Assembly: GCA_963769425.1 (NCBI GenBank)
Contig: CAVYLP010000006.1
Span: forward strand, 448,001 to 512,000
Length of the DNA stretch: 64,000 nucleotides
Reading direction: 5' to 3'
Source: Candidatus Bathyarchaeota archaeon
GTDB lineage: Archaea > Thermoproteota > Bathyarchaeia > TCS64
The position numbers and the translations under genes are program-made. Below, one piece after another: positions 41,008-63,082 of this stretch (positions are counted from its first letter, which is position 1; every line of letters begins with the position of its first letter). The notes under the pieces were generated by a model that saw only the letters and a program-made list of their open reading frames with translations, had not been told where the DNA came from and made no database searches.

Positions 41008-41054
41008 GAAGCCGTGGATCAGGTTCCGATATCTCCTGTAGGATCGAGTCATGA
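41008..41054 (-). other. 3' arm of the 23S processing stem (bulge-helix-bulge)
   Basis: Inverted repeat of 44070-44111 with 3-nt bulge / 4-bp CTCC:GGAG / 3-nt bulge. Confidence 0.85.
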
Positions 41055-44069
<3,015 letters not shown>

Positions 44070-44111
44070 GACCCGGTCCCACAGCTGGAGTCGGAACCTG
44101 TGCACGGCTTC
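44070..44111 (-). other. 5' arm of the 23S processing stem (bulge-helix-bulge)
   Basis: gaagccgtgcacaggttccga-ctcc-agc-tgtgggaccgggtc pairs with the downstream arm. Confidence 0.85.
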
Positions 44112-44245
44112 ATAGCCTCTTCGAGGGATTCCATCCCCCCGTGGCTCGCCCTTAGCCCCGCGAGCTGTGCTCGGGAGCCGCATATTGTGAGATTGATTTG
44201 GGTCGGGTAGTTACTTCCCCCGCATTCACTGCGTCGTTCTTTCTT

Positions 44246-45743
<1,498 letters not shown>

Positions 45744-57256: not shown

Positions 57257-58072
57257 ATGCTTGAAAGCGTTTTCTCAGCTAGGTGTTGTGCTTTGGATTC
57301 CCCCAATGTTGTGGCCCTCGTGGAGGCTTCGGAGTTGGACTCGGAGCGCCTCGCGGAGATGGCGAAGAGGGCGTTCGATTCCGACGTGGAGGTCGGTGCG
57401 CCGGGCCCCGGTGGGCCGCAGGGCTACGACTCCCCCGTGTTCTACACCCGGTCCCTCAAGTTCCTCAGCTGCTACGTGATCCTGCTGGGGGAGGAGACGG
57501 TGGGCGGCGTCTTGGTGAACGTGGGTGGGGCCCACGGCGTCTTGGAGAGGATATTTGTTGATCCGAACCACCACAGAGAGGGGATAGGCTCGAAGGCGAT
57601 GGAGCTCGTCATGGGTAGGTACCCAGACGTCTCCCTCTGGACCCTCGGCGCCCCAGAGTGGAACACACGCACGACAGCGTTCTTCGAGAAGCTCGGCTTC
57701 AGCCAGGTCGGCTGGGACCAGACAGAGCCCGGCGCAAAGAATAGGTGGTACGAGAAGTTGACTGGCGACGCCGAGGCCATCATGCCCATAGGCTCCCTAA
57801 GGGACGGTCTGAGCAACGTCACTGTGGAAGGAAAGGTGGCGGAGAAGTCGTACCCACGCATGGTGAGGTCGAAGAAGACCGGGGGGACACTCACTGTTGC
57901 CAACGCGGCGCTCGAGGACGCCACCGGCAGGATAGTGATGGTTCTCTGGGAGAAGCAGTTCGAGGTCGTGAAGGTCGGGGCGCGGCTCAGGGTGGAGAAC
58001 GGGTACACGAACTCCTATAGCGGCGTGACGCAGCTAAACGTCGGGTACGGGCGGCTCATAACACTCATCTAA
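57257..58072 (+). CDS. GNAT acetyltransferase fused to an SSB/RPA-type OB fold; start may lie further downstream
   Basis: IFVDPNHHREGIGS and FFEKLGF; C-terminal IGSLRDGLSNVTVEGKV...LEDATGRI..VLW...VENGY...QLNVG. Confidence 0.8.
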   Translation: MLESVFSARCCALDSPNVVALVEASELDSERLAEMAKRAFDSDVEVGAPGPGGPQGYDSPVFYTRSLKFLSCYVILLGEETVGGVLVNVGGAHGVLERIFVDPNHHREGIGSKAMELVMGRYPDVSLWTLGAPEWNTRTTAFFEKLGFSQVGWDQTEPGAKNRWYEKLTGDAEAIMPIGSLRDGLSNVTVEGKVAEKSYPRMVRSKKTGGTLTVANAALEDATGRIVMVLWEKQFEVVKVGARLRVENGYTNSYSGVTQLNVGYGRLITLI

Positions 58073-58186
58073 TTAATAGTGAATCAAAGAAGAATGCTTC
58101 GTGGTTTACGAAAATTTTCAGTTGCCTCGACCATAAGACTGTTGAGAAAGGGAGATTTTAGTTGGTAATTTTTAAGAATCGTGGGG

Positions 58187-58354
58187 TGCTCAGGCGAGGT
58201 CACCGCGCTGACAACACTTTGGCGTTATCAGCTGGGAAGTGTAGGTTTCCCGGCCAGCCAAAGCCAGCCAAGTTCCTTCGCAGCCCGCTCCTCACGGTTC
58301 CGCGGCTTTCAGGTCCTCCACTGCTTCGACCTTTCGTCCGCTCCCACCTGAGCA
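58187..58354 (-). ncRNA. Candidate structured non-coding RNA of unknown class (~168 nt)
   Basis: 12-bp closing stem UGCUCAGGUGGG/CUCGCCUGAGCA enclosing several G-U-containing hairpins; GC-rich island in AT-rich flanks; TATA box upstream. Confidence 0.6.
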
Positions 58355-58373
58355 AAGCAATCAAAGTCGCCGG

Positions 58374-58381
58374 AGTATAAG
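58374..58381 (-). promoter_or_regulatory. TATA box of the candidate ncRNA
   Basis: CTTATACT about 20 nt before the closing stem, same geometry as the rnpB promoter. Confidence 0.5.
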
Positions 58382-58568
58382 CGCGTTCCATTGTATTCAG
58401 CTATCAATTAGCGGTTTCTAGACCGCTGATTATGCCATTTAATGCGCCGTATAAGCTAAGTATTATCATGAGCCGAATGTCACTAATTAATTGCGTCTGA
58501 TGGTGTTGTTTAAGGTTCAGTACTATCCGGGTGAGCTTTTTCCTACCTTCTGAGATGCTCGCGTGAGT

Positions 58569-59423
58569 TTAGGTGAGAGGGCATCCACCTGTCGTTGTCC
58601 TTACCCTGTAGATGCTTGTCTGTGCGGTTATGTACAGGGTCTTGAGGTCAGCGTCGCCCCACGCGACGTTCGAGGAGACCTCGGGGGTTTCGACAACGCC
58701 GAGTGGTTCGCCGGATGGGTCTATGACCCATACGCCGCCGGAGCCGGTGCAGTAGATGTTGCCGTGGACGTCGACCTTCATGCCGTCTGGGTTCCCCGGC
58801 TTGGGTCCTTTGAGCTCTGTAAATACCCCGCCATTGCGTATTGACCCGTCTCTCTGCACGTCGAAGACCCGGATGTGGCGCCTAGCAGTGTCGTCGACGT
58901 ACAGCTTGGACTCGTCCGGGCTGAAGGCGAGGCCGTTCGGGCGATCGAAGGAGTCGTCCAGGAGGGTCAGCTTCCTGCGAACCCCGAGCCTGTATACACC
59001 CTGATAGGGCAACTCCTTCCCCTCCAGCCTATCGTTGAGGCCGTACGGCGGGTCCGTGAAGTAGATGGCGCCGCTCCTAGCCACGACGACGTCGTTTGGG
59101 CTGTTTAGTCTCCTGCCTTCGTAGCTCTCGGCAAGTACCTTCACGGTGCCGTCCCGTTCAGTGCGGGTGAGTCGCCTGTCGTGCTCGCAGGCTATTAGGC
59201 GACCGCTTCTGTCGAGGGTGAGTCCGTTACTTCGGCCGCTGGGCCTCCGGTAGACCTCGGCGTGATCGGTGCCGGGGGTCCAGCTGTATATCGTGCTCGC
59301 GGGGATGTCCGAGAAGAGTAGTCTCCCGTCCACCCAGAGGGGGCCCTCCGTGAATTGGAATCCGCTGAGAACCTTCTCGATCTTTGAGTCGGGGATGATT
59401 TTTCCTAGCTTTGATCCCGGCAT
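58569..59423 (-). CDS. SMP-30/gluconolactonase family protein
   Basis: FTEGP.W, SNGL, LNSPND, FTDPPYG, PNGLAFSPD, PDGMKVD. Confidence 0.92.
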   Translation of the reverse strand: MPGSKLGKIIPDSKIEKVLSGFQFTEGPLWVDGRLLFSDIPASTIYSWTPGTDHAEVYRRPSGRSNGLTLDRSGRLIACEHDRRLTRTERDGTVKVLAESYEGRRLNSPNDVVVARSGAIYFTDPPYGLNDRLEGKELPYQGVYRLGVRRKLTLLDDSFDRPNGLAFSPDESKLYVDDTARRHIRVFDVQRDGSIRNGGVFTELKGPKPGNPDGMKVDVHGNIYCTGSGGVWVIDPSGEPLGVVETPEVSSNVAWGDADLKTLYITAQTSIYRVRTTTGGCPLT

Positions 59424-62773: not shown

Positions 62774-63082
62774 GTGGTCGGTGTGCCGGTCGTAACCCAC
62801 CTTCTGTTCTAGGCGGCATTCAGCTATACGGGCTACCCGCGCCCCCTGCAGGAGGGACCCGGCGCCTATTCGCCCTTTCACCCCGCGGGTCGGCCGTCTC
62901 AACCCTGCCACCCGGCGTCCTCGCCCCTGACCGGGGCTCACAGCATTTGCCGGGGGAGGTACCGTTTCTGTCCGGAGCCGACGCTCTCGCGCCACGCCTC
63001 GCGGCGTCGCGGTCCTGCTCGGTGGATGGAGTTTCCTCAGACCCTTGCGGGCCCGGCGGCCGCTCACCGGCTCACCGACCAC
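62774..63082 (-). ncRNA. rnpB: RNase P RNA
   Basis: P1 GUGGUCGGUG/CACCGACCAC; GAGGAAACUCC (CR I); ACAGAAAC; UGAGAC; GCUGAAUGCCGCC; AACAGAAGGUGGGUUAC (CR V). Confidence 0.93.

Follow-up and report, generated by a model that had tools for sequence, protein, structure and literature searches.

A multi-copy family of pseudoknotted structured RNAs in one family of Bathyarchaeia

The minus strand of the window (the whole stretch of 64,000 nucleotides analyzed here) carries a gene for a small structured RNA at 58354-58187, with position 1 of the RNA corresponding to 58354 after a check of the coordinates. It lies between an SMP-30/gluconolactonase-like gene (SGL), located upstream on the same strand, and a GNAT acetyltransferase gene on the plus strand, which is convergent with the RNA and represents the next gene downstream. 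As stated by a first-pass annotation of this DNA, no same-strand gene follows that the RNA could regulate. A covariance model of the family described below matches the window copy at 58181-58354. The archaeal RNase P RNA gene (62781-63075) is found 4.4 kb from this locus. The window also hosts the 16S and 23S rRNA genes (41054-45743), with a spacer of 175 nt between them, for which ARAGORN reports no tRNA; the 5S gene is unlinked from both, being situated ~480 kb off on the same contig. The features of the locus, given by window position, are:

57257-58072, plus strand: GNAT acetyltransferase gene
58174..58354, minus strand: RNA gene, in which the folded body of 168 nt (58354-58187) is followed by a short 3' tail and the T-rich stop signal TTCTT
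58354-58343 with 58198-58187, minus strand: P1, closing stem of 12 bp (5' strand 58343..58354, 3' strand 58187..58198)
58302..58341, minus strand: P2 arm, built from GCGG/CCGC, a purine-rich internal loop of 5x5 to 6x6, AGGUC/GACCU and a 12-nt loop
58341-58338 with 58305-58302, minus strand: P2a, GCGG/CCGC
58332-58328 with 58315-58311, minus strand: P2b, AGGUC/GACCU
58324-58320, minus strand: 5' strand of the pseudoknot, GCAGU, in the P2 loop
58284-58280, minus strand: 3' strand of the pseudoknot, GCUGC, in the internal loop of the P3 arm
58202..58298, minus strand: P3 domain with P3a, P3b, a 3-bp helix and the hairpin P3c
58298-58294 with 58206-58202, minus strand: P3a
58291-58286 with 58241-58236, minus strand: P3b, GGAGCG/CACUUC
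58277-58275 with 58245-58243, minus strand: 3-bp helix of the P3 arm
58272-58249, minus strand: P3c hairpin, CUUGGCUGGC-UUUG-GCUGGCCGGG, with the invariant apex GGC-UUWG-GCU
58232-58207, minus strand: P4 hairpin of 11 bp, GCUGAUAACGC/GUGUUGUCAGC
58376..58381, minus strand: TATA-like box CTTATA, 22-27 nt upstream of the first paired base, with BRE-like purine-rich positions upstream of it
58403..58407, minus strand: conserved upstream motif TTGAT, at ~-53 from the RNA start
58569-59423, minus strand: SGL gene

Folding of the minus strand yields an energy of -80.6 kcal/mol (z -4.55), which none of 200 dinucleotide shuffles matched; the plus strand reaches -56.5 kcal/mol (z -1.31), with 20 of 200 shuffles being as good. 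The conserved core of the fold consists of P1, a three-way junction and the arms P2 and P3, which are held in a side-by-side arrangement by a pseudoknot of 5 bp between the hairpin loop of P2 and an internal loop within the P3 arm. The 12-bp closing stem proposed by the first-pass annotation is present in the sequence and confirmed by related copies, and the same holds for its arm of GCGG/CCGC and AGGUC/GACCU, the helices P2a and P2b, which are separated in the window copy by the purine-rich internal loop ACGAA/GAAAG. Its hairpins CUUGGCUGGC/GCUGGCCGGG (P3c, 7 of 10 pairs covarying) and GCUGAUAACGC/GUGUUGUCAGC (the 11-bp P4, 6 of 11 pairs changing on both sides) were likewise recovered, and the pairing of GCAGU with GCUGC, so far only suspected, was confirmed as a pseudoknot by covariation in related copies. 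In contrast, the proposed helix GGGAA/UUCCC had to be abandoned because it conflicts with P3b, which contains its 3' half and covaries far better. For the same reason, the register computed by RNAalifold for the P3 arm, including a 2-bp mini-hairpin at GCUGCGAAG, was replaced by the P3b register together with the pseudoknot. Both of these elements were first suggested by eye from the comparison of long and short forms and then counted formally; P3b reads GGAGUG/CACUCC in long forms and GAGAUG/CAUCUC in short forms. The earlier argument for RNA-level selection from G-U pairs also holds, one P3c pair being G-U in 86 of 89 distinct sequences, and such strand-specific G-U pairs agree with the minus strand being that of the RNA.

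Extension of the search toward related genomes revealed a multi-copy family. On the DNA level, 14 of 41 genomes of relatives matched, including 12 of the 17 other genomes of the same genus, and two near-identical copies were found in the genome of the window itself (G000). A first covariance model was constructed from 19 genus-level copies and a core model subsequently from 86 matches. By covariance model, the RNA is present in 51 of the 71 genomes of the GTDB family of G000, with 1 to 6 matches per genome. On genus level, it was detected in 16/17 genomes of g1, 28/32 of g8, 4/5 of g5 and 1/1 each of g20 and g6; no match was obtained in g21 (0/5), g23 (0/4) or the single genomes of g22, g2, g4, g7 and g3 (0/1 each). 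A search for a divergent form in five genomes of the RNA-less sister genera g21 and g23 returned noise only (best 5.5 bits, E = 0.86). None of 8 genomes from three sister families in the same order carries the RNA, nor does any of 123 genomes from 30 other families of Bathyarchaeia, and in a sample of 151 genomes from the phylum only G000 itself matched. G000 harbors four copies, i.e., the window copy, a copy of 174 nt (C1:315267-315440), one of 148 nt (C1:213372-213519) and a divergent one of 138 nt (C6:64447-64584).

A degenerate pattern scan of species-representative genomes gave 98 stretches, and the model confirmed 65 of the 80 loci listed. Of these 65, 63 are titled Bathyarchaeia or Bathyarchaeota, one is titled "uncultured archaeon" and one is a bacterial-titled MAG contig; a further 15 bacterial-titled loci among the 80 were discarded as chance pattern matches, the model finding nothing there. 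Locus L089 lies on a 5.4-kb contig titled Krumholzibacteriaceae bacterium MAG, with a typical RNA copy in the Band_7/DUF4342 synteny of g8, and its genome is filed in the archaeal family; the bacterial title is probably a mislabel. The pattern also matched more than 120 metagenome contigs, 73 of the 80 listed being confirmed by the model, and 0 viral contigs.

The 141 distinct sequences fall into three size classes:

133-150 nt: core form, without P4
172-175 nt: form with P4, the type of the window copy
204-214 nt: form with an enlarged P4

P4 occurs exclusively in the genus of the window, in its forms of 172-175 nt and 204-214 nt. Therefore, the ~168-nt element of the first-pass annotation is a real RNA, but it is neither a single locus, belonging instead to a multi-copy family of one lineage, nor the basic form, since its length includes a genus-specific addition to a core of ~135-148 nt. 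In some paralogs (the 204-214-nt forms L021, L027, L012, L013, L043, L044 and L030), P4 carries a conserved insertion of ~40 nt, which holds a G+C-rich sub-hairpin (CCCGGG-loop-CGGG) and a GUGA element. At L023 (G011:C41:8304-8446), the promoter and the first ~85 nt are intact and followed by unrelated DNA, which could mean that a paralog has decayed, that an insertion or integration has its breakpoint here, or that the assembly is in error. The RNA is non-coding: lengths range from 122 to 214 nt without a multiple-of-3 pattern, 51 of the 141 distinct sequences lack any open frame on the sense strand, and no reading frame is conserved.

Covariation was evaluated on an alignment of 89 distinct sequences made with the core model. 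In total 89.9% of the cells pair (76.0% after shuffling), at a covariation score of 0.400 (0.175 after shuffling), and 0 of 500 shuffles reached the observed pairing or covariation score, a type of test that is inflated by relatedness among the sequences. As a control, sliding the partners by 1-3 columns left 31.7-39.6% paired. An earlier alignment of 75 distinct sequences, made with the first model, had given 87.8% paired cells compared with 76.3% in shuffles. The nested helices are part of the model that makes the alignment, so their counts, listed here by helix, lean toward the structure:

P3b: 99.4% of cells paired, 6/6 pairs changed on both sides
Pseudoknot: 98.4% of cells paired, 3/5 pairs changed on both sides
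P2a: 94.8% of cells paired, 2/4 pairs changed on both sides
P2b: 91.6% of cells paired, 5/5 pairs changed on both sides
P3c: 90.4% of cells paired, 7/10 pairs changed on both sides
P1: 86.4% of cells paired, 6/12 pairs changed on both sides (its two innermost pairs being confined to the long form)
3-bp helix: 83.4% of cells paired, 3/3 pairs changed on both sides
P3a: 74.0% of cells paired, 5/5 pairs changed on both sides

The pseudoknot is absent from every model, and its near-perfect pairing therefore provides independent evidence. One of its pairs is represented by types including A-U (54), C-G (29) and G-U (4), another by A-U (68), G-C (10) and G-U (11), and on the separate alignment of 75 sequences it was 98.1% paired. 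Many homologs were thus found to covary, with the pseudoknot among the covarying helices.

Conserved unpaired nucleotides cluster at the junction, at the flanks of the pseudoknot and at the apex of P3c. Within the junction, A13 and G62 are each found in 88 and A63 in all of the 89 sequences, and an A in the 3' joining strand is present in 87. The A residues flanking the pseudoknot are invariant (89/89), as are G, C, U, U, G, G and C of the apex GGC-UUWG-GCU, each being identical in 89 of 89 sequences. A target for this apex was sought in the rRNA operon of the window, where its complement GCCWAAGC is absent from the rRNA genes; in the whole window this motif occurs 4 times, with 3.77 expected, i.e., at chance level.

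Of the 89 sequences, 62 short forms carry GGGA or GGAA in the 5' part of the junction and R-A-G-A-(A/C)-C in its 3' part. In two reports (PMC4005666; PMC10573300), a k-junction is defined by a loop in the bulged strand, after which G.A and A.G pairs follow, the third helix being inserted in the non-bulged strand. The short-form junction allows a comparable arrangement, with tandem G.A/A.G next to a turn of three nucleotides and P2 inserted in the non-bulged strand, and we loosely regard it as possibly kink-turn-like, judging from the bases alone. In the long form, including the window copy, the same junction bases are Watson-Crick paired and the signature is absent. Furthermore, the k-junctions described in PMC4005666 stack their helices coaxially, and P2 stacked on P3a would need a further bend of P2 to form the pseudoknot.

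A separate observation concerns the loops of P4 (58218-58221) and P3c (58259-58262), which are complementary and co-vary. All 9 sequences with the P4 loop CAAA have UUUG in P3c, and both of those with CUAA have UUAG; the remaining 14 P4 loops, GNRA tetraloops of the sequence GCAA or GUAA, are combined with either P3c loop. Counting closing pairs, the complementarity extends up to 8 nt. It could reflect contact between the two loops, imitation in cis of a target recognized by the P3c apex, or ancestry shared by a few lineages.

Analysis of the 72 distinct copies with full flanks revealed signals at fixed distances from the RNA. An A/T block spans -27 to -23, with A or T in 72/72 copies at both -25 and -24, in 70/72 at -26 and in 65/72 at -23. 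Further upstream, A is conserved at -33 (66/72) and -38 (65/72) and T at -53 (65/72), and the RNA starts with an invariant UGC (72/72). On the 3' side, ATTTT in short forms or TTCTT in long forms follows 8-12 nt after P1; in the window copy, TTCTT is located at 58178-58174, 9 nt past the stem. These promoter-like and terminator-like signals support the promoter of its own that had been ascribed to the RNA. The parallel drawn between its CTTATA box and rnpB also proved justified, the RNase P gene of the window having a similar CTTATA ~30 nt upstream. A scan for sigma-70 promoters and hairpin terminators, which is unsuited to archaea, found none. Paralogs of different genera additionally have in common a TTG(A/T) motif ~27 nt upstream of the TATA box. 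Neither TTGAT nor AAC motifs were seen ahead of the genes for RNase P, 5S and SRP RNA in this genome, and the TTG(A/T) motif may be the site of a family-specific regulator.

With respect to expression, a soil RNA library yielded a contig of 243 nt that spans 58231-58343, shows 4 differences there and continues into a different P4; it is therefore derived from a relative. This is the only hint of expression and a weak one, considering that DNA carry-over is possible. Two runs labeled "metatranscriptomic" are probably DNA, yielding one contig of a relative or nothing, and the contigs carry neither transcript ends nor levels. None of the sequencing runs contained at least half of the sampled words.

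The gene families beside the RNA copies are heterogeneous. Over ~90 loci, the search for a common partner gene returned only synteny classes, none of them spanning paralog classes. A Band_7 gene adjoins the RNA in 11 loci and a gamma-glutamyltranspeptidase gene in 4 loci of genus g8, a LigD primase-polymerase gene lies beside it in 3 loci in divergent orientation, and Yip1 is a recurrent convergent neighbor, which faces the 148-nt paralog at 3-26 nt. These recurrent neighbors represent orthologous synteny within genera and not a shared partner. Congruently, the SGL and GNAT flanks are common to G000 and G008, and the paralogs are stable, with copies occupying syntenic loci in different species. 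Among 64 loci, the downstream neighbor is encoded on the same strand in 34 and on the opposite strand in 22, 8 having none within 700 nt, and convergent genes approach the RNA down to 3-33 nt. The varied and often convergent neighbors argue that each copy is its own transcription unit, with a predicted archaeal-type promoter and a T-run end.

We then compared the RNA with catalogued families. At gathering thresholds, Rfam 15 (4227 models) matched the window only with LSU rRNA, SSU rRNA and RNase P, all of them off the locus. A permissive scan of 57900-58700 up to E = 10 gave four chance-level matches (E 1.8-4.7), the sole one on the RNA being to a structure-less lncRNA model at 12.2 bits with a threshold of 40 bits, and ten diverse members of the family, scanned permissively up to E = 1, gave nothing on the RNA. 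On the plus strand, the type-P3 twister ribozyme model scores 17 bits at 58403-58463 (threshold 39.9 bits, E 2.3) on a small inverted repeat upstream of the RNA promoter; this match was judged to be due to chance. ARAGORN finds no tRNA or tmRNA in the window, and genuine 5S RNA (G000:C6:985798-985917, 71.9 bits), SRP RNA (C6:876292-876603) and RNase P RNA (window 62781-63075) are encoded elsewhere. The first-pass annotation had likewise seen no signatures of 5S, SRP, tRNA, hammerhead or TPP, lysine and glycine riboswitches in the element.

Guide RNAs carry a C box RUGAUGA and a D box CUGA at their ends, or, in the H/ACA type, form a hairpin with a variable pocket, an upper-stem kink-turn and a 3' ACA box. 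Inspection of the alignment led us to reject both types, the 5' end being an invariant UGCCC, no ACA box following P2 and the P2 loop being engaged in the covarying pseudoknot. In literature on structured or non-coding RNA of Bathyarchaeota and in bacterial discovery surveys, no description of the RNA was found, supplementary motif lists aside. Taken together, the lack of a matching Rfam family, the many covarying homologs and the signals of its own support the classification as an undescribed class of stand-alone structured RNA, as the first-pass annotation had proposed.

Considering these data, the window locus is one of four paralogous genes of G000 for a small, stably folded non-coding RNA that probably acts in trans as a binding platform. 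The RNA would exert this role via its tertiary fold, offering a platform for a protein or a ligand, and would involve neither long antisense pairing nor function as the leader of a neighboring gene. As the likeliest single mechanism, it would be part of a ribonucleoprotein, to which we assign somewhat less than an even chance. Candidate sites for protein binding would be the invariant P3c apex and the invariant junction purines, the latter forming the possibly kink-turn-like tandem G.A/A.G in short forms. No partner protein, ligand or target was found among the neighbors of the ~90 loci or, as complement of the P3c apex, in the rRNA operon of the window, and the many g8 copies located 56-145 nt upstream of a same-strand gene leave some room for a role in cis. 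A more far-reaching version is put forward tentatively, according to which this new archaeal RNA class would have its own tertiary core, where the pseudoknot would lock a k-junction-like three-way junction, and would serve as a ribozyme or trans-acting metabolite sensor or as the RNA subunit of a Bathyarchaeia-specific ribonucleoprotein, with 4-6 specialized paralogs per genome.

A ligand-binding or catalytic RNA, i.e., an orphan trans aptamer or ribozyme with the pseudoknotted two-arm core as its pocket or active site, is the main alternative, although a rather unlikely one. A compact three-way junction with a loop paired to an internal loop and with parallel arms is typical of aptamers and small ribozymes, and the architecture found here resembles them. 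The invariant unpaired purines at the junction and beside the pseudoknot fit such a pocket, as do peripheral helices that are free in length and an optional P4. Nevertheless, no Rfam riboswitch or ribozyme model matches, a cleavage-site signature was not recognized, the neighboring genes indicate no single pathway, and the maintenance of several paralogs per genome would be unusual for aptamers.

In build, the RNA can be likened to aptamers that combine a junction with a pseudoknot, such as SAM-I, or with another tertiary bridge, such as TPP; in organization, it can be likened to orphan RNAs such as the raiA motif. The SAM-I riboswitch has an arm with an internal-loop hinge, and the apical loop of this arm forms a pseudoknot with the joining strand of the neighboring domain. 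The RNA described here shares the hinge-bearing hairpin arm and the engagement of its apical loop in a pseudoknot with the neighboring domain. It differs from SAM-I in lacking a model match, in being an archaeal stand-alone gene and in its P2 internal loop, which on inspection of the alignment is symmetric, variable and unfit for a standard kink-turn. The TPP riboswitch aptamer likewise places two arms of a three-way junction side by side and connects them by a tertiary bridge, and the short forms alone also recall its k-junction by the possible tandem G.A/A.G and the third helix in the non-bulged strand (PMC4005666; PMC10573300). On the other hand, the Rfam TPP model does not match the RNA, which has no thiamine genes nearby, does not form a leader and connects its arms by a pseudoknot of Watson-Crick pairs, and the long form of the window has normal pairs in place of the junction motif.

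That the RNA is a cis-regulatory leader, either a riboswitch or a protein-binding element acting on the downstream gene, appears improbable. This explanation draws on genus g8, where the RNA precedes the same-strand Band_7 (SPFH) gene by 77-145 nt in 11 loci and the gamma-glutamyltranspeptidase gene by 56-60 nt in 4 loci. However, the 34 same-strand cases among the 64 loci are about what chance would give and are largely orthologous loci counted repeatedly, and the RNA holds no steady position upstream of same-strand genes of one pathway. Furthermore, a convergent gene lies opposite both the window copy (GNAT) and the 148-nt paralog (Yip1), a T-run follows every copy, and the downstream genes are without shared function.

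Even less probable is a divergent or rearranged member of a known family missed by the covariance models, e.g., a second 5S-like RNA, a permuted riboswitch or the guide of a transposon nuclease. The similar size, the gene of its own, the closing stem, the three-way junction and two arms, the first with a loop of 12-14 nt, recall 5S rRNA (RF00001), but there is no 5S match, a pseudoknot is present and the occurrence is limited to one archaeal family; moreover, the genome encodes its genuine 5S, SRP and RNase P RNAs elsewhere, and no Rfam model matched at the locus up to E = 10 or in the ten diverse members up to E = 1. In one lineage, a long-form paralog (L027 and L136, the same locus) lies 359 nt downstream of tnpB (IS605 OrfB). 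An omega RNA of TnpB, which would overlap or directly adjoin the 3' end of tnpB and terminate in a variable guide, was rejected, as tnpB accompanies a single lineage among the ~90 loci; the 3' tail of the RNA is conserved, not variable, before the T-run, and there is therefore no guide segment.

A MITE-like small mobile element, whose terminal inverted repeats would be formed by P1, or a passively copied integration target is very improbable: multiple copies with a terminal inverted repeat of 10-13 bp, the truncated or hybrid copy L023 and a tyrosine-integrase gene (L084, 6583-7728) 376 nt upstream of one short-form copy in a single lineage would be compatible with it, but the conserved unit runs ~55 nt upstream of the inverted repeat and through the promoter, internal helices and pseudoknot covary with strand-specific G-U pairs, copy number is low (1-6) at loci that are syntenic across species, and viral contigs gave no matches.

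To our knowledge, complex RNA folds that are backed by covariation and lack a known function are few, and nearly all of those described are bacterial. OLE and HgcC-type RNAs belong to such orphan stand-alone structured RNAs, and Bathyarchaeia themselves are uncultured and globally abundant. The raiA-motif RNA (ModT) of Bacillota and Actinomycetota (PMC11706538) is a further example. RNAs of this kind are, like the one described here, separately transcribed, intricately folded, strongly conserved by covariation, restricted in lineage and without a tie to a downstream gene. In contrast to the raiA motif, the Bathyarchaeia RNA is archaeal, and it occurs in several paralogs per genome, shows no similarity on sequence or model level and is built from a three-way junction with a loop/internal-loop pseudoknot.

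The present analysis adds an archaeal RNA family with more than 100 distinct sequences and an independently confirmed pseudoknot, organized as a small multigene family with a conserved promoter architecture. At ~140 nt, the RNA is a small and concrete target for structural and biochemical work. The covariance models built here would allow its annotation in Bathyarchaeia genomes, and the RNA itself may be a lead toward a ribonucleoprotein, sensor or ribozyme specific to this lineage.
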